DNA of 46,611 bases from an uncultured Candidatus Bathyarchaeia archaeon (GCA_964450845.1 CAYVGZ010000005.1:1-46611); one strand, 5' to 3'; positions 1,915 to 28,275 are shown, counted from the stretch's first letter. The notes: generated by a model not told the origin, from the letters alone. Translations and numbers: made by a program.

Positions 1915-3084
1915 TCAGAAATAGGGTTGATTATCAATAAGGCTCTTTATAAGCATTGAGTAAACATTGATTGCTGCTTCTTCAAAATCTGTTCTTTGAG
2001 CTTTTCTCTGAACTCTTTCTCGTATAATCTCCGACAAATTCCCACGTTCTATTCTTTTCTGTATTATCGAAAGATACTTCTTCTCTTCTTCTGTCGCATT
2101 TCCCCAAGCAATCCTGAGGAACCGCTGACAGACTTGGCGTGCCGTTTGTCCATTTGGATGTGCAACTTTTGCGTCTAACCCCATTCTTACAACCGAATTA
2201 AAATCTTTTACCAAAATTTCGTGCGGCAGAAATTTAGCTTTTCTTTCTATGAGTCCCCTAAGCAGTGCTCTTATAAAACAACTTAATGCAACATCCGACT
2301 TAACGCATTCCTGTTCATCCATCACACGTATCTCTATGGCTTTCCTGTCAAACCTAAAGACTGCTCCACGCGAGTTAACCCAATCCTTAAAGAGAAGACA
2401 CTCATCCACTCCAGCACGCGCCAAGTCCAGCGAATACGTCTCAATAATTTCCTTTTCATACTGCCCAAATGAGGACACATATTCTGGAATCACATCTCCA
2501 GTTACCGAAGAAACTTCCTTCTGGTTCAGCATATAAAAAAGCAATCTGTTATCAACATTTTCTCCAAATTTTCCTTCATAAATGGGAGACGAAGCCGAGA
2601 TTGCTGGCAAGTAAGCACAAATCTCCGAGAGCATGTTATGCATGAGAATAGCGTTTTCTTGGTTGGAGTATGGAATGTTTAATTGAAAGCTCTGGACGTT
2701 GAGCCATCCATGCTGATTCAGGTTGAAGACTTTACTGTAAGCTTCGTAAATTTTCCTATGACGGTGAGGCCAAACTCCAGTCTCTTCAAGTTTAAGTAAA
2801 GGGTGCATGCCTGCTCCAAGGAGATGCGCCCTATATTTGGTTTCTAAAAAATCTGTGAGAGTCAAAACTGCCCCGTGCATGATTTCCTCGAAGTTTTCAG
2901 GCGATCTGAAAGGCGTGTTGGGTTTAATTTCCATAACATGTAACTGGATTTCTTTTCCAAAAGTGAAGTTTGACAACTCTACAAAATTCACAACACGCCC
3001 ATGGAAATCTTTTATGACTTTGTCCACGATGGGCAAAGCGTTTAGTTCTTCGTTAACCAATGAAAATTCATGTTCTGGGCCCAA
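1915..3084 (-). CDS. Glutamate-cysteine ligase family 2 (GCS2) / carboxylate-amine ligase; true start uncertain
   Basis: GPEHEF, ELQ-like EIQLHVMEIK, GAGMHP, HGWLNVQSFQLNIP, SASSP, RFDRKAIEIRVMDEQEC motifs. The frame stays open for 8 more plausible codons (GTYKTLEV) upstream of the TTG. Confidence 0.82.
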   Translation of the reverse strand: MGPEHEFSLVNEELNALPIVDKVIKDFHGRVVNFVELSNFTFGKEIQLHVMEIKPNTPFRSPENFEEIMHGAVLTLTDFLETKYRAHLLGAGMHPLLKLEETGVWPHRHRKIYEAYSKVFNLNQHGWLNVQSFQLNIPYSNQENAILMHNMLSEICAYLPAISASSPIYEGKFGENVDNRLLFYMLNQKEVSSVTGDVIPEYVSSFGQYEKEIIETYSLDLARAGVDECLLFKDWVNSRGAVFRFDRKAIEIRVMDEQECVKSDVALSCFIRALLRGLIERKAKFLPHEILVKDFNSVVRMGLDAKVAHPNGQTARQVCQRFLRIAWGNATEEEKKYLSIIQKRIERGNLSEIIRERVQRKAQRTDFEEAAINVYSMLIKSLIDNQPYF

Positions 3085-21254: not shown

Positions 21255-22655
21255 TTGCGAGGGATAAATGACTTGTCCATTCTTCCCATAGACACGGGTC
21301 CAATTGAAACGGGCCGTTACGGAACTGCTGAAATGAGGAGAATCTTCGAGGAAGAAGCGCGGGTGCAGAGAATGCTTGATGTGGAAGTAGCCTTAGCATG
21401 GGCGCACGCTGAGGTTGGCAATATACCACGAAAAGATGCTGAAAAGATTGCTGCTGTGGCTTCGATAAAACATGTTAGATTAAGTCACATAAAGGAGATT
21501 GAACGTGAAATAAAACATGATGTTACCTCTTTGGTCAGAGCTTTTGCAGAAGCATGTGGACCAAGCGGGGCATATGTTCATCTAGGCGCAACAAGCTATG
21601 ATATCGTGGACACCGCAAATGCTTTACAACTAAAACAAGCTCTGGAACTAATTGAAAAAAAACTGGATGACTTCGAGAAGATCCTAATGGAAAAAGCCTT
21701 ACGGTACAGAAGCACGTTGATTATGGGTAGAACACATGGTCAGCATGCGTTGCCGATAACTTTGGGCTTTAAATTTGCAGTTTGGATGCGCGAGATTTCG
21801 CGGCATATTGAAAGGCTTAGGCAATGCAAAGAACGTGTTTTGGTTGGAAAAATGAGCGGAGCAGTAGGCACTCAAGCTGGCTTAGGTCCTAATGCTGTGA
21901 AGATTCAGGAACTCGTTATGCAACGGTTAGGGATTAAAGCTGCTGATATTTCTACACAAATCGTGCAGCGAGACCGCCATGCAGAACTTGTATGTTTGCT
22001 GGCTATGATTGCTTCTACGCTTGACAATTTTGCCACCGAGGTTCGAGAGTTGCAGAGACCTGAAATTGGGGAGCTTTTCGAGTTTTTTGAGGTTGAGAAG
22101 CAGGTTGGAAGTTCAACCATGTCTCAGAAGCGCAATCCTGAACTCTGTGAAAGGGTTTGCGGACTGGCTAGAATCGTTAGAAGCCTTGTTGTTCCAGCTT
22201 TAGAGAATGTTGTAACATGGCATGAACGCGATTTGACGCAGTCTTCTGCAGAGCGTTTCATAATTCCCGAAACATGCATTCTGACTGATCACATACTTTT
22301 CTTGATGATTAAAATTGTGGCTAATCTGCGTGTTGACGAAAAGCGCATGCTAAAAAACATTGAGCTGACTCAAGGACGTGTAATGTCAGAAGCGGTTATG
22401 ATTGCATTGACGAGGAAAGGCGTGAGTCGCCAAGAAGCCCACGAACTGCTTAGAAAATTGACAATAAAGAGTGAAACAGAGAGGCGACATTTCAAAGAAA
22501 TACTTTTAGAAGACAAGAACGTGAGGAGAAAACTCGCAGAGAAAGAAATCGAAGAGGCTTTAAAACCTAAAAATTATTTGGGAACGGCTAAAGAACAAGT
22601 TGCACGCATAGTTAAAAAAACAATAAAAGAGCGCAAGGCTAGAGGTCTAACTTAG
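21255..22655 (+). CDS. purB: Adenylosuccinate lyase (alternative TTG start at 21273)
   Basis: RYGTAEM, HDV, VHLGATSYD, GRTHGQHA.P, GAVGT, TQI..RD, GSSTMSQKRNP, HERDLTQSSAER. Confidence 0.95.
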   Translation: MRGINDLSILPIDTGPIETGRYGTAEMRRIFEEEARVQRMLDVEVALAWAHAEVGNIPRKDAEKIAAVASIKHVRLSHIKEIEREIKHDVTSLVRAFAEACGPSGAYVHLGATSYDIVDTANALQLKQALELIEKKLDDFEKILMEKALRYRSTLIMGRTHGQHALPITLGFKFAVWMREISRHIERLRQCKERVLVGKMSGAVGTQAGLGPNAVKIQELVMQRLGIKAADISTQIVQRDRHAELVCLLAMIASTLDNFATEVRELQRPEIGELFEFFEVEKQVGSSTMSQKRNPELCERVCGLARIVRSLVVPALENVVTWHERDLTQSSAERFIIPETCILTDHILFLMIKIVANLRVDEKRMLKNIELTQGRVMSEAVMIALTRKGVSRQEAHELLRKLTIKSETERRHFKEILLEDKNVRRKLAEKEIEEALKPKNYLGTAKEQVARIVKKTIKERKARGLT

Positions 22656-24883
22656 TATTCTGTTAAAGCCTTTTGCTTCCAAGCCTCTTCTTTTTCGAGT
22701 TTTTCCCAAAATTCCTTCTTTACAAAACCGCCAACTTGTTCTTTAATCCTCTTTGCTACTCTGGGTCCTATAAGCGGCAGATTCATTAAGTCTTCAATTT
22801 GCACTGTTTTTATGTCTTCTATTGTTTTATATCCAGCATTGTATATTATGCGCCCACGGGCTCTGCCAATCCCCTCCAGTTTAACTATTGGCAACAGTTC
22901 TTTCTTTACTCCTTTCTCTACTCTTTCCTTGAGTTCAATGGTTAGCGGCAAAGCTTGTTTGTTGCCGAAAAGCGTTGCTAATTCATGTGTGGCGTGAAGC
23001 AGCCATTTTGCGTTTTCAATGGTCCTGTAGAGATCGCCAGGTTGCGCTCTGAACCGTTCAATTATTCCATCTTCAGTCATCTCTTCAATCCAAGCACACA
23101 AAGTCATGGCTGTTTTTACTTCACCGAGAAACTGCTCGTAGATTATGCGGTCTTCCCACTCGTTTGGTATATCTACTAAGAGTTCTGTTCTGTGTTCTTC
23201 CATGAAAACAGATACTTCGTCTAATTCACGCGCATACGGCCGTAACACTGGACCCATGTCTGGAGTGTGCGCAATCATGTGGAGAAGGCTTAAATCTGTT
23301 AGGTATGCTGGTTTCCGCCTTAAGGCGTCGCGGATTATGACTCCTGAAACTGGGTCTATGTAGAGTTCGCTTACTCGCTTTCCAAACTTTGTAGCATAGA
23401 TGTTGTCGGCTGCAAGGTCAATCATTTCCTCATCGTATAGATATTTGAGGATTTTTGCTATGATGCTTTTAATTGCATTGACATCGTATTGGTGAGCGTA
23501 AAAGGTTCTGCCGAAAAAGTCGTAAATTCCCTGTTCCGTGTGAGCGAAATCTGCTGCAATCGTTGCTAAGACGTGCGATCGCAAAATTCTTTCAACAGCA
23601 AGCCGTGACCATATTCGCTCTGGACGCGCAAGAATGTAGCTTTCCATTAGATAGTCTGATTCATCAGCAGTTTTAGCGATAAGCAGGGCTTCTCCAACCT
23701 TGTCGTATTTTGGTCTTCCAGCTCTCCCTGCCATCTGTTTGTACTCTAAAACGCTGATTGGGTAATAGCCATATCCAGGTTCGTATCGTCTATAATCTTG
23801 GATTATAACTGTTCTGGCAGGTAGGTTTACGCCGAAAGCCAGTGTTGGCGTTGCCGTTAAAACCTTAATCTTTCCCTGTCGGAAAGAATCCTCTATTAAT
23901 TTGCGGTGTCCACCGCCTAAACCAGCGTGGTGAAAGGCTGTGCCACGCTTAACCAGCTCTGCAAGTGACTCGCTTATTCTTGTTCTTTCGCCAGCCACCA
24001 AAATTCTCTCTGATTCGTTCTCTAAAGCGCGTTTCACAGACTTGGATAAGACTTCGTCAACTTCGCCTGCAACTCTATTCGCAAGAGTAACAGCGTTTTT
24101 CCGCGTAGATGCAAAGATTAACGCTTGACCGCCAAATTTGACCGTGTTTAATGCCAAATTTATTGCTGTGTTCTTTGTCTTCTTCTCTATTTTGCGTGCG
24201 TCTCCATCCCTGAATTGGATTTCGTCATGTAAGAGAACGCCTTCCTTTAGAGGGATTGGCCTCCATTCAGTTGTAACATAGTCTGCTTTAAGCCACTCCG
24301 CAATTTCTTCAACATTGTTTATTGTTGCGCTTAAGGCTAAAACCTGTATGTCCGGATTAATCTGCATGAGCCTTGCCAAAACAACCTCAAGGGTTGGACC
24401 GCGTTCAGCTTCATTTAGCAAGTGCACTTCGTCGGCGACTATGAGCGAAATCTCGTCCATCCATTTGGCTCTATGTCTCAGAAGCGAGTCTGCTTTCTCG
24501 TTTGTAGTTATGATTATGTCATATCTTTCCAGCCACGGGTCGTTGCTGTCAAAATCGCCTGTGCTGATGCCTATCCTTACACGTTTTCCTTCAGTTTTCC
24601 TTATTGAAGCATATTTTTTGAAATCTTGGAATTTTTCATTGGCTAGAGCCCTTAGAGGCGTTAGATAAATTGTTTTTCCGTTTTTTTCTAATATATGCTT
24701 GAGGGCGCAAAACTCCGCAACCAAAGTTTTTCCAGAGGCTGTTGGACTGGCTAGAACAAGATTTTTTCCTTCAAGGGCTCCAGCTTTTATTGCTTCCTCC
24801 TGCGGCGGATAAAGCTCAACGATTCCAGACCTAATTATAATTTCTTTAACTGATTCTGGTATCTGCAAATCCGTTACTTTCAC
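22652..24883 (-). CDS. hel308: Hel308/Hjm Ski2-like SF2 DNA helicase
   Basis: LYPPQ, SPTASGKT, ADEVHLL, LSATI, AFHHAGL, TLAFGVNLPA, QMAGRAGRP, C-terminal HhH (LEGIGRARGR). GTG at 24883 is preferred over the track start at 24925. Confidence 0.95.
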   Translation of the reverse strand: MKVTDLQIPESVKEIIIRSGIVELYPPQEEAIKAGALEGKNLVLASPTASGKTLVAEFCALKHILEKNGKTIYLTPLRALANEKFQDFKKYASIRKTEGKRVRIGISTGDFDSNDPWLERYDIIITTNEKADSLLRHRAKWMDEISLIVADEVHLLNEAERGPTLEVVLARLMQINPDIQVLALSATINNVEEIAEWLKADYVTTEWRPIPLKEGVLLHDEIQFRDGDARKIEKKTKNTAINLALNTVKFGGQALIFASTRKNAVTLANRVAGEVDEVLSKSVKRALENESERILVAGERTRISESLAELVKRGTAFHHAGLGGGHRKLIEDSFRQGKIKVLTATPTLAFGVNLPARTVIIQDYRRYEPGYGYYPISVLEYKQMAGRAGRPKYDKVGEALLIAKTADESDYLMESYILARPERIWSRLAVERILRSHVLATIAADFAHTEQGIYDFFGRTFYAHQYDVNAIKSIIAKILKYLYDEEMIDLAADNIYATKFGKRVSELYIDPVSGVIIRDALRRKPAYLTDLSLLHMIAHTPDMGPVLRPYARELDEVSVFMEEHRTELLVDIPNEWEDRIIYEQFLGEVKTAMTLCAWIEEMTEDGIIERFRAQPGDLYRTIENAKWLLHATHELATLFGNKQALPLTIELKERVEKGVKKELLPIVKLEGIGRARGRIIYNAGYKTIEDIKTVQIEDLMNLPLIGPRVAKRIKEQVGGFVKKEFWEKLEKEEAWKQKALTEY

Positions 24884-25044
24884 TTGAATGCGCCCATTTC
24901 TTCTCTTACAACAGCATTTTACCACATCAACAATTATAAAATGTTATGTGTGGATAACAAGTTTGTTTAGGTTATGTTTTTTTATTAGATGAGTGATACT
25001 AAGCTTTAGAAGAATGGTATTTGCCCATTGAGGATTGAGTTAGA

Positions 25045-26268
25045 ATGGTTGAAAACGTGAAACAACTGCTTAAAGCGCACGAAGGCATAAAACACGAGGT
25101 CTATCTTGACATTGAAAATTCAAGCATTGTTTCCAAAGAAATAATTGAAGCGATGCTGCCATACTACGATCAACGCGCGTATGGCAACCCAACGCTAACG
25201 CATAAGCCTGGCTGGGAAGCCTTCGAAACAATAATGGAATCAGCACAAAAAATTTCCACATTTTTGGGATGCAAAACACTTGAGGAAGTCAACTTTACCC
25301 CAGGAGAAACAGAAGCCAACAACCTAGCATTGATAGGAACAGTCTCTTCAATGAAAGACAAAGGCAAAAAAATTGTGATTTCAGAAATTGAGCCCATAAG
25401 TGTTTTGTATGTTACCGAAATGCTGCAAAAACACGGATTTTCCACAACGAAAATCCCAGTTGACAGCGAAGGCTTCATAGACCTTGAAAAGCTAAGAGAA
25501 GCTGTTGATAAAGAGACAGTTCTTGTAAGCTTGTCGGTTGTAAACCACGAAATTGGAACAATACAGTCAATCAAAGAAGCGATAGAAATAGTTAAGGACA
25601 AAAACTTGGAAACAATTTTCCACACTGATGCTTCAGATGCTTATGGCAAAATTCACTTCAATGTTAAGGATTTAGGTGTAGATTTAGCCACGATAAGCAG
25701 CTACAAAATTTTGGGACCGCGTGGAATAGGCGCCCTATATATACGTGAAGGGGTTAATGTGGAAAGAATTTTGGAAGGTCAAATAGGGACGCAGAAACTT
25801 TGGCCTGGAGTTGAAAATACGCCTCTAATTGTTGGTTTCGCTAAAGCGTCTGTCTTGGCTTTCCAAAATTTTGAAGAAAACGTTCGTCACATGCGAAGGC
25901 TGCGGGATAAACTGTTTGATGGGATAACTGGAAAAGTATCGGATGTTAGAGTTAACGGACCTAAAGGCGACAAAAGGTCTCCTGACAACGTGAACATAAG
26001 CTTTCTGAGGTGTGAAGGTGAAGCTTTAACAATCGAGCTAAGCCTAAACGGCGTTTACGTTTCAAGCGGAAGCGCGTGTACACGGCGTCTCCTCCAACCG
26101 AGCCACGTTCTTGTTGCTATGGGCAGAAAGTTTGACGAAGCCCACGGCAGCATACTAATGAAGGTCACACGGTATCATACTGAAGAAGATATAGACTATG
26201 TTCTAAGCGTGATTCCAAAGGCTGTTGAAAGAATAAGAGGAATAACTGGTTCCACAGGAGTTGAGTAA
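25045..26268 (+). CDS. IscS/NifS-like cysteine desulfurase homolog with degenerate PLP/substrate-binding residues
   Basis: Group I fold (YGNP, NHEIGTIQ, KILGPRGIGALY, SSGSACT...PSHVL.AMG), but EH to EP, DAxQ to DASD, SGHK to SSYK, and IRFS to ILMK. Confidence 0.85.
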   Translation: MVENVKQLLKAHEGIKHEVYLDIENSSIVSKEIIEAMLPYYDQRAYGNPTLTHKPGWEAFETIMESAQKISTFLGCKTLEEVNFTPGETEANNLALIGTVSSMKDKGKKIVISEIEPISVLYVTEMLQKHGFSTTKIPVDSEGFIDLEKLREAVDKETVLVSLSVVNHEIGTIQSIKEAIEIVKDKNLETIFHTDASDAYGKIHFNVKDLGVDLATISSYKILGPRGIGALYIREGVNVERILEGQIGTQKLWPGVENTPLIVGFAKASVLAFQNFEENVRHMRRLRDKLFDGITGKVSDVRVNGPKGDKRSPDNVNISFLRCEGEALTIELSLNGVYVSSGSACTRRLLQPSHVLVAMGRKFDEAHGSILMKVTRYHTEEDIDYVLSVIPKAVERIRGITGSTGVE

Positions 26269-26270
26269 TT

Positions 26271-26771
26271 ATGTCGCGAACGCCTCTGCCCTATAATCCT
26301 AAGGTTCTAGATTTGTTCAGAAATCCTAAAAATCTGGGAAAAATGGAAGATGCCACAGTTACGGCAGTCGCGGGAAACCCCTTATGCGGAGACATGATCA
26401 CCTTCTACCTAAAAATCAACGATCAAGACGTAATCGAAAAGGCATCCTTTGAAAGTTACGGTTGCGCCGCAAACATAGCAACTTCAAGCATAGTCACAGA
26501 AATGATTAAAGGAATGAAACTTGAAGATGCATGGAAAGTCTCGTGGAAAAGCGTTACAGAAGCTGTGGGTGGGTTGCCAAGCATAAAGTTTCACTGTGGC
26601 ATTCTGGCCGTTGGAGCACTTAAAAGGGCCATCAGAAAATACTTTGAAAACAAGGGAGACTCTCCTGATTGGCTGTTGAAAGAACCAAGTTTTGAAGAAA
26701 AACAAGCATTGGAAGAAGAAGAGCTAGCAAAAGTACTCTCAAAAAGAATGAAAACCGAAGAGGAAAAATAA
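26271..26771 (+). CDS. iscU: IscU/NifU-N-type Fe-S scaffold protein with a charged C-terminal extension
   Basis: NPKNLG, GNPLCGD, FESYGCAA, LPSIKFHC: three Cys plus the conserved Asp and His. Confidence 0.92.
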   Translation: MSRTPLPYNPKVLDLFRNPKNLGKMEDATVTAVAGNPLCGDMITFYLKINDQDVIEKASFESYGCAANIATSSIVTEMIKGMKLEDAWKVSWKSVTEAVGGLPSIKFHCGILAVGALKRAIRKYFENKGDSPDWLLKEPSFEEKQALEEEELAKVLSKRMKTEEEK

Positions 26772-28006
26772 TGTTGGATCCGTACAAAATTCGGGAAGAC
26801 TTTCCAATATTAAAGCGAAAAATAAACAATTACCCACTGATCTATTTCGACAACGCTGCAACTTCGCAAAAACCAAAACAGGTAATCGACGCCATCAAAA
26901 ATTTCTATGAAAATCATAACGCAAACGTCCATAGAGCCGTTCACACGCTTTCTCAGGAAGCATCTGAACTTTACGAGGAGGCGCACGAAGAGGTTGCCAA
27001 TTTCATAAACGCAAATAGCATGGAAGAAATAGTTTTTGTGAGAGGTACAACTGAAGCAATAAACTTGGTTGCCTACGCTTGGGGTCTTCGAAATTTAAGG
27101 AAAGACGATGAAGTCATAGTGTCATTGATGGAGCATCACAGCAACATCGTTCCTTGGGAAATTCTTTCAAAACTGACCGGGTTTAACGTTAAGTACATAG
27201 AAGTAAATGATGATGGAACCCTAAATTATGAGGCTTTTGAAAATATAATGTCCAACAAAACTAAAATTGTCTGCATCTCTCAAGTTTCAAACTTTAGCGG
27301 GGTCATAAACGATGTTAAGAGAGTCGCAAGGGTTGCCCATGAGCATGGTGCCTTAACCGTCATCGACGGAGCGCAATCCGTTCCTCATTTACCTATTAAC
27401 GTTAAAGATTTGGATGTAGATTTTTTTGCGTTTTCTGGACATAAAATGTTGGGTCCAACAGGCATAGGCGCCCTATACGGGAAGCGTGAGATTCTGGAGA
27501 AGATGGAGCCATTTCAAGGTGGTGGCGAAATGATACGGGAAGTCTCCTTCAACCAAGTAACTAAACGCTGTTCCATCATATGGAATGATTTGCCTTGGAA
27601 GTTCGAAGCTGGAACACCCGACATCTGCGGCGGCGTTGGGCTGATGGAAGCAGTAAAATATCTGAGAAGGCTAGGTATGGAAAACGTTAAGGCACATGAA
27701 TGTATGTTGACAGAATATGCCACGCGACGCATGCAAGAGTGCCAAAAGGTCAAGATTTACGGACCAAAAGATGCGTCCGTTAAATGTGGCATAATTCCTT
27801 TTAACGTTGAAGGTTTAAGTTCGCACGACATTGCCCTGTTCTTGGACAATTATGGAATCACTATCAGAAGTGGCTTCCACTGCGCCCAACCATTACATGA
27901 AATATTCAGGCTAAAATCCTCAGCTAGAGCAAGCTTCTACATCTACAACACTCGCGAAGAAGTCGACCGATTCATTCAAGTTTTGAAGGAGATTGAGCGG
28001 GTTTAA
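26771..28006 (+). CDS. sufS: SufS-type (group II) cysteine desulfurase
   Basis: YFDNAATSQKP, NANVHR, MEHHSN.VPW, DGAQSVPH, FSGHKMLGPTG, KFEAGTP, RSGFHCAQP, ARASFY.YN. Confidence 0.94.
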   Translation: MLDPYKIREDFPILKRKINNYPLIYFDNAATSQKPKQVIDAIKNFYENHNANVHRAVHTLSQEASELYEEAHEEVANFINANSMEEIVFVRGTTEAINLVAYAWGLRNLRKDDEVIVSLMEHHSNIVPWEILSKLTGFNVKYIEVNDDGTLNYEAFENIMSNKTKIVCISQVSNFSGVINDVKRVARVAHEHGALTVIDGAQSVPHLPINVKDLDVDFFAFSGHKMLGPTGIGALYGKREILEKMEPFQGGGEMIREVSFNQVTKRCSIIWNDLPWKFEAGTPDICGGVGLMEAVKYLRRLGMENVKAHECMLTEYATRRMQECQKVKIYGPKDASVKCGIIPFNVEGLSSHDIALFLDNYGITIRSGFHCAQPLHEIFRLKSSARASFYIYNTREEVDRFIQVLKEIERV

Positions 28007-28275
28007 TGGTTACCATTGAAGATTATGTGGCTAGAATTGAAGAAACATGTGGCGAAGAAAAGGACTTTATCGTCATTTTTAAATATGATAAGAAAGAACA
28101 AACAATTGCAAAAATCATGAAAAAGGCAAGAATTGAAAAGTCAATTTCTGCTATAATTTTTGAATTAACCTTTAAAGATGTTTCTTTTCGACTTTATGGG
28201 ACAGGCAAGGCTATTTTTCGAGATTTAAAAGACAAAAGCGAACTGCAGAACGTTTTGGCTGATCTTTTATCGTAA
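28006..28275 (+). CDS. Small hypothetical protein, possibly similar to the ThiF/MoeB C-terminal accessory domain
   Basis: 89 aa, start overlaps the sufS stop (TAATG). ETCG...FELTFKDVSFRLYGTGKAIFRDLKDKSE. Confidence 0.6.
   Translation: MVTIEDYVARIEETCGEEKDFIVIFKYDKKEQTIAKIMKKARIEKSISAIIFELTFKDVSFRLYGTGKAIFRDLKDKSELQNVLADLLS

Follow-up and report, generated by a model that had tools for sequence, protein, structure and literature searches.

An eroded, conserved IscS homolog encoded with IscU, SufS and a small cysteine protein: a possible non-catalytic platform for Fe-S cluster assembly in Bathyarchaeia

Can a cysteine desulfurase homolog that has lost many of its catalytic residues still take part in the building of Fe-S clusters, and if so, where does the sulfur come from? 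The question arises in Bathyarchaeia, archaea that abound in anoxic sediments and have many Fe-S enzymes. It is raised by an open reading frame at positions 25045-26268 (+) of a 46,611-nucleotide stretch of DNA from an uncultured member of this class (GCA_964450845.1 CAYVGZ010000005.1:1-46611), hereafter the window. The product of this frame is referred to as IscS*. A preliminary description of the locus had invoked the IscS of Archaeoglobus fulgidus as a precedent, and the precedent is real: that protein carries Asp in place of the Schiff-base Lys, has no desulfurase activity, donates its Cys as a ligand to the IscU cluster, and binds PMP/PLP even without the Lys (PMC8918507, PMC7585200). That an inactive IscS can partner IscU is already known from A. 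fulgidus, and it leaves a puzzle, namely how an IscS-IscU pair can assemble clusters if IscS cannot mobilise sulfur. A likely answer lies in the operon described here, where the IscS, eroded independently of that in A. fulgidus, is accompanied by an intact SufS and a small Cys protein. Some genomes have no other recognisable means of assembling clusters.

The frame is full length, with 407 codons open and no internal stop, and it encodes a homolog of type I (IscS/NifS-like) cysteine desulfurases whose active site is eroded. The Pfam Aminotran_5 model (PF00266) matches residues 19-386 with 189 bits, placing the protein in the aminotransferase class V fold, and among family models NifS and IscS fit best; with the corresponding NCBIfam equivalog models the protein scores 370.7 for NifS and 306.4 for IscS, far below the respective cut-offs of 530.75 and 643.2. 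The nearest named homologs are from Bathyarchaeia, and the best PDB matches, at E ~1e-87, are 9WER, a canonical desulfurase, and 4EB5 and 4R5F, both A. fulgidus IscS2.

Residues were mapped by script from a MAFFT alignment with E. coli K-12 IscS (NC_000913), and pairs of residues are given with the E. coli number before the IscS* number. Every motif change listed in the preliminary description was seen in this alignment. The canonical neighbors that were sampled do carry the catalytic residues replaced in IscS* at positions 104, 183, 205, 240, 243 and 354. The PLP-stacking, acid-base His that an active enzyme would carry is replaced by Pro (H104 to P117, TEH to IEP), the Gln contacting O3' by Asp (Q183 to D198, DATQ to DASD), a cofactor-contacting His by Tyr (H205 to Y220, SGHK to SSYK), the phosphate-contacting Thr supplied by the partner subunit by Val (T243 to V256), and the Arg that binds the substrate alpha-carboxylate by Leu (R354 to L371, SIRFS to SILMK). 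Further changes are R240 to W253 (RSGT to WPGV), S73 to P86 and A75 to E88 (TSGATE to TPGETE), and the conversion of YSATT to IENSS at residues 23-27, and two of the replacements, E88 and D198, bring acidic residues into the phosphate/pyridine pocket. The Schiff-base Lys (K206, K221) and the nucleophilic Cys of the mobile loop within SSGSAC (C328, C345) are retained, as had been noted before, and so are the pyridine-N Asp (D180, D195), T76 (T89) and S203 (S218).

Orthologs were sought in 201 species genomes of the class. IscS* orthologs at 62-85% identity occur in ~45 genomes from several Bathyarchaeia families, and all 27 genomes sampled from the window's family have one. The preliminary description had proposed that orthologs be aligned for the same substitutions, and these recur in at least 41 of them. 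In 41 full-length orthologs P104, D183, W240, V/I243 and L354 are invariant (P117, D198, W253 and L371 of IscS* being invariant in the core-clade orthologs), position 205 is Tyr or Phe in all but two, and Leu is found at position 354 throughout the core and sister sequences defined below. K206 and C328 are likewise invariant, and the longest invariant and most conserved stretch of the protein is the Cys loop with its flanks, residues ~323-375.

In comparisons with two relatives for which dS was unsaturated or nearly so, dN/dS of IscS* was 0.084 and 0.075, as against 0.085 and 0.068 for the helicase gene flanking the operon, 0.093 and 0.083 for SufS, 0.075 and 0.078 for IscU*, and 0.082 for adenylosuccinate lyase (first relative only). 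Furthermore, identity to the window protein was at least as high for IscS* as for SufS in every locus compared. Because the pattern of replacements is fixed across families, and because dN/dS of ~0.08 resembles that of the neighbors, the eroded IscS* is under ordinary purifying selection and represents a selected state, not decay. The earlier view that the degeneration looked selected rather than random is thus upheld, as recurrence of the same residues in at least 41 orthologs with dN/dS of 0.075-0.084 is more than chance would give. The loss of so many catalytic residues and the low family HMM scores might bring to mind a decaying pseudogene copy of iscS, but the frame is full length and open, identical substitutions are found across several families, dN/dS is low, the gene is present in 27/27 sampled family genomes, and in several genomes it is the sole IscS-type gene. 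Ortholog conservation and dN/dS rule out decay, and we give it next to no chance of being correct.

IscS* is the first gene of an operon with the order IscS*-IscU*-SufS-orf89, in which a spacing of 2 nt between the IscS* stop and the iscU-like gene, as originally reported, is followed by 1-nt overlaps of the IscU* stop with SufS and of SufS with orf89. A Hel308-like archaeal helicase gene (22652-24925, -; DEAD, Helicase_C, archaeal domain 4 and HHH_5) lies divergently upstream and keeps its place beside the operon in most loci of the window's family. The genes downstream are convergent, and the neighbors of the operon in the window are the helicase and adenylosuccinate lyase. The gene set recognized at the outset, IscS-IscU-SufS, stands, and what it overlooked are orf89, a C-terminal tail on IscU*, and a second IscS-IscU pair of the A. 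fulgidus type elsewhere in the genome. The synteny of IscS*, IscU* and SufS is conserved in 26 of the 26 family loci examined and does not extend in that form to distant orthologs, which have SufS nearby instead. At 63-68% identity the order becomes (SufS)-IscS*-IscU*-orf89, where SufS either precedes the other genes or lies on the opposite strand.

IscU* (26271..26771, +) is an IscU-type scaffold protein of 166 aa that matches Pfam NifU_N with 132 bits, and the alignment shows that all of the cluster ligands, C39, D41, C65, H108 and C109, are kept. Its scores against two NCBIfam models fall short of the cut-offs (NifU_clost, 139 against 187.9; SufU, 65 against 92.5), and assignment as a SufU is ruled out by the low score with that model together with the retained IscU-type His-Cys pair. 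Following the scaffold domain is a conserved acidic C-terminal tail of ~38 aa, W-L-x5-T-x-EEKQALEEEELA-xx-LSKR, that AF2 confidently predicts as helices in a model with a mean pLDDT of 91. The tail is found on the IscU proteins of the core and sister clades of IscS, and is absent from those that accompany near-canonical and A. fulgidus-type IscS. This restricted distribution indicates that the tail appeared together with the eroded IscS, and it probably stabilises or regulates the IscS*-IscU* complex, making it a candidate clamp on the eroded subunit.

In contrast to IscS*, the 411-aa SufS of the operon (26771..28006, +) is an intact cysteine desulfurase of type II and scores 584 bits with TIGR01979, above the cut-off of 475. 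Across 10 orthologs there is no variation at H122/H123, D199, Q202, H224, K225, C371 and R386, and the full catalytic set is kept in both the 62% and the 44% identity groups. The last gene, orf89 (28006..28275, +), encodes an 89-aa protein with a TGK motif and one invariant Cys, C15, which with the equally invariant G16 lies within an ExxCGE motif. No Pfam family was found for orf89, and those of its 1352 homologs that have a named source are all from Bathyarchaeia. The gene closes the operon in the window, in locus L062, and in 13 loci at 63-70% identity. AF2 predicts a small alpha/beta domain (pLDDT 87) with C15 in the loop of the first hairpin, between beta1 and beta2. A Foldseek comparison with the PDB returned no match at E <= 0.001; the best likenesses were to TBP (probability 0.97, TM 0.55) and to the N-terminal domain of RNase H3, a wide VIA-align search peaked at Z 6.4, a value that common arrangements also reach, and in the Atlas the only matches were orf89's own Bathyarchaeia clusters and domains within ThiF-family proteins (TM ~0.6). 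The predicted structure of orf89 thus bears a weak likeness to known folds, best to TBP, and the fold assignment is tentative. The protein is a candidate persulfide carrier or accessory factor. Complex prediction for SufS with orf89 scored 0.35 (runs 0.31, 0.40 and 0.35) as compared to 0.00 for the best control, with run agreement of at least 86% and partner pLDDT of at least 83. Of 80 solved complexes 58 reach the mark applied to such predictions, as do 2 of 110 mismatched pairs, and passes scoring 0.60 or less comprise 7 of the 80 solved complexes and both passing mismatches, being more often wrong unless the pairing was likely beforehand; the predicted complex at 0.35 is accordingly weak support, and is not counted as evidence here.

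What else could supply sulfur or a scaffold in the same cell? The window's genome, 93.5% complete, has four class V aminotransferase genes of substantial size, those for SufS, IscS*, a 380-aa protein, and a second IscS on contig C53. The 380-aa protein (contig C7, 1471-2613, -) is 29% identical to SufS; it has the PLP Lys, lacks the catalytic Cys segment, and has conserved counterparts in relatives, at ~185 bits with PF00266. On contig C53, genes at 839-1075, 1101-1469, 1483-2667 and 2667-3050 encode a TusA with a CPEP motif, a DsrE-like protein, an A. fulgidus-type IscS, and a canonical-scoring IscU. This IscS has the SSND motif and the changes H205N, K206D, Q183A and R354L, so that each of the genome's two IscS-like proteins has lost a different set of catalytic residues. 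A full catalytic set was found in this genome in SufS alone, which is hence the only canonical desulfurase found there.

The SMS/SUF scaffold is usually viewed as widespread in archaea. No match to the SufB/SufD core domain (PF01458, SUFBD_core) was obtained in the 93.5%-complete genome of the window, although 14 of 14 control genomes were matched, and within the window's family, this genome included, only 14 of 61 genomes have a match. The SMS/SUF scaffold thus seems dispensable in the family. In two relatives, G082 (95% complete) and G145 (94% complete), IscS* is the sole IscS-type gene and IscU* the sole NifU_N gene, SufS adjoins them, and searches for SufB and for a second NifU_N protein found neither. 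In at least these two relatives the operon is the only recognisable Fe-S assembly system, and it must therefore be functional there. More broadly, the four-gene operon looks like the main Fe-S cluster factory of many Bathyarchaeia.

Two maximum-likelihood trees of IscS proteins (quick search, SH-aLRT support) suggest how the eroded state came about. The IscS* core clade has a support of 99, and nearest to it in the trees is a sister clade at 50-55% identity that shares D183, W240, V243 and L354 with the core and retains H104 and H205. Core and sister are joined, with a support of 97, by P0126, a third degenerate lineage. The next group outward, L063-L065, is near-canonical, as it keeps R354, K206, H205 and T243, lacks only Q183, and has SufS adjacent. 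The simplest order of erosion is loss of Q183, followed by loss of R354 and T243, then R240W and Q183D, and finally H104P, H205Y and A75E. Proteins of the A. fulgidus type (SSND), represented by the C53 copy and P0143, form a marked clade of their own away from IscS*, and membership of IscS* in that clade is ruled out both by its residues, SSYK and not SSND, and by the trees. The separation of the clades means that the losses in IscS* and in the A. fulgidus type were independent, and that the carboxylate-binding Arg was lost convergently.

The sister clade also differs from the core in its surroundings. In 10 of 10 loci (L053-L059 and L066-L068) the order is DsrE2-TusA-IscS'-IscU', with no SufS or orf89 nearby. 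The IscU' proteins carry the tail, and the IscS' proteins share Q183D, R240W, T243V and R354L with IscS*, so that what distinguishes this system from that of the window is the retention of H104 and H205 and the linkage to DsrE2/TusA rather than to SufS/orf89. A true SufS is absent from four of the five sister-clade genomes checked, and in three of the five no other IscS- or SufS-like gene was found; there, the protein lacking R354, Q183 and T243 may still supply sulfur, or sulfide may be used. In one sister-clade locus, L054, a flavodoxin gene follows IscU.

Known systems each share part of this arrangement. A. fulgidus IscS2-IscU, the 'inactive cysteine desulfurase paralog' of PDB entries 4EB5, 4EB7 and 4HVK, with the D199K variant in 4R5F, resembles IscS* in its type I fold, its IscU neighbor and its retained mobile Cys loop, and in the PDB-match alignment its carboxylate-binding Arg is also Leu. 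However, A. fulgidus IscS2 has lost the Schiff-base Lys (Asp199) and kept the stacking His, whereas IscS* has kept the Lys, has lost H104, Q183, H205, R240 and T243, and is accompanied by SufS, orf89 and a tailed IscU; furthermore, an A. fulgidus-type copy is separately present in the window's genome, on C53. The canonical IscS-IscU pairs, represented by E. coli (PDB 3LVL/1P3W) and by the archaeal MIS system (MisS-MisU, the IscS2-IscU2 of M. acetivorans), have the same two-gene core, fold, IscU ligands and Cys loop. Unlike IscS*, which falls far under the equivalog cut-offs, the canonical and MIS IscS proteins have the full residue set and are active as desulfurases, and their IscU partners are without the extra C-terminal tail of IscU*. 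The Bacillus subtilis SufS-SufU pair (PDB 5XT5) likewise sets a type II SufS next to a member of the NifU_N family to which its persulfide could pass, but IscU* keeps the His before the last Cys and has no SufU insertion, and the window's genome has an extra IscS-like protein and no SufBCD scaffold that could be found.

Taken with the gene context, these observations make it somewhat more probable than not that SufS makes persulfide while a non-catalytic IscS* and IscU* build the cluster, as the assembly platform of a hybrid Fe-S machine. The division of labor proposed earlier, in which SufS supplies sulfur and IscS* is dead, fits the context of a sole canonical desulfurase, SufS, and the failure to find SufB. 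The residue pattern suggests that IscS* would have lost its PLP chemistry and activity, and from the operon as a whole we infer the direction of sulfur flow and the roles given to orf89 and the IscU* tail. SufS would take sulfur from L-cysteine as a persulfide on C371, and the sulfur would pass to the IscS*-IscU* complex, either directly or by way of the invariant C15 of orf89, C345 in the mobile loop of IscS*, or both. The cluster would be built on IscU* (C39, D41, C65, H108 and C109), with C345 of IscS* acting as a relay and/or providing the fourth ligand, for which the A. fulgidus (IscS-IscU)2 structure is the model, and with the acidic tail, whose origin falls on the branch of the eroded IscS, probably stabilising or regulating the complex. 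The strongest comparative argument that sulfur enters such platforms from outside is that three eroded IscS-IscU lineages each stand beside a different sulfur-handling module, namely SufS and orf89, DsrE2-TusA, and TusA-DsrE.

Two points count against a non-catalytic IscS*. K206 is present in all 50 aligned sequences, D180 in 49 of the 50, and S203 and T76 are nearly invariant, as would be expected if PLP were still bound. The other is that three of the five sister-clade genomes, as noted above, have no second IscS- or SufS-like gene. It is conceivable, though improbable, that IscS* remains a PLP enzyme with altered chemistry or substrate while SufS serves another pathway, and the conservation of K206 and D180 is the main argument for this. 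IscS* could, for instance, be a desulfurase that is slow or needs a partner for activation, or else a lyase for substrates that lack a free alpha-carboxylate, cysteine bound to a protein or carrier being one case. The invariant P117, D198, W253 and L371 could then mean that the pocket was remodelled and not emptied, and some sister-clade genomes are without another desulfurase candidate. However, the stacking His, the O3' Gln, the trans-subunit phosphate Thr and the carboxylate Arg are all gone together, acidic E88 and D198 have been placed in the phosphate/pyridine pocket, and an intact SufS is kept in the same operon. Moreover, the phosphate-contact positions vary within the clade, position 76 being T, S or V and position 205 Y, F, N or S overall, and this drift, with that at D180, fits a dispensable cofactor. 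The single exception at D180 is an ortholog 85% identical to IscS* (locus L011, genome G008) in which the equivalent residue is Pro (FHTPASD); either the cofactor site, being dispensable, has truly changed there, or the assembly is in error.

The operon might instead serve sulfur trafficking outside general Fe-S cluster assembly, for instance the thiolation of tRNA or of sulfur-carrier proteins, with IscS*-IscU* acting as a persulfide relay. Related eroded IscS pairs do adjoin the carriers TusA and DsrE, but IscU* has the complete ligand set, including the His-Cys pair, and the window neighbors are the helicase and adenylosuccinate lyase, not thiolation genes. Furthermore, as no other scaffold was found in G082 and G145, a trafficking role would leave those genomes with no recognisable Fe-S system, and such a role is judged quite unlikely. 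An assembly platform supplied with sulfur by SufS remains the preferred reading of the operon.

Searches of the literature on Bathyarchaeota cysteine desulfurases and IscU, and on archaeal TusA/DsrE2 with IscS, found no description of this system. New with respect to the searched literature are an independent lineage of inactive-looking IscS with different losses, the constant linkage of this lineage to SufS, to an IscU with a tail and to a new small Cys protein, and its apparent role as the sole Fe-S system. A more far-reaching proposal, to be held only tentatively and doubtful at present, is that these genes form a self-sufficient and hitherto undescribed type of Fe-S machine apart from ISC, SUF, NIF, MIS and SMS, in which sulfur would pass from SufS through orf89 to a non-catalytic IscS*-IscU*, which would be the sole housekeeping Fe-S system in many Bathyarchaeia, and in which the series from near-canonical to sister to core would record an enzyme turned scaffold subunit. 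Such a compact four-protein system places sulfur donation and the scaffold or ligand function on separate polypeptides, where each can be tested separately, offers a natural series of intermediates between a PLP enzyme and a structural subunit, and bears on how clusters are synthesized in Bathyarchaeia without SufBC.

The region upstream of the operon holds two elements. A perfect palindrome, TGTTAT-N6-ATAACA, lies at 24942-24959, between the helicase and IscS* genes; it has no match upstream of IscS* in ~50 orthologous loci, and was dropped as a regulator site on that account. Nearer to the operon, ~60 nt upstream of the IscS* start, is a promoter-like T-rich element, GGTTATGTTTTTTTATTAG (24970..24988, +), and many orthologous loci of the window's family have a GGTTA(T/G)GTTTTTTTA-like motif equally far upstream of IscS*, suggesting that the element is a putative BRE/TATA element.
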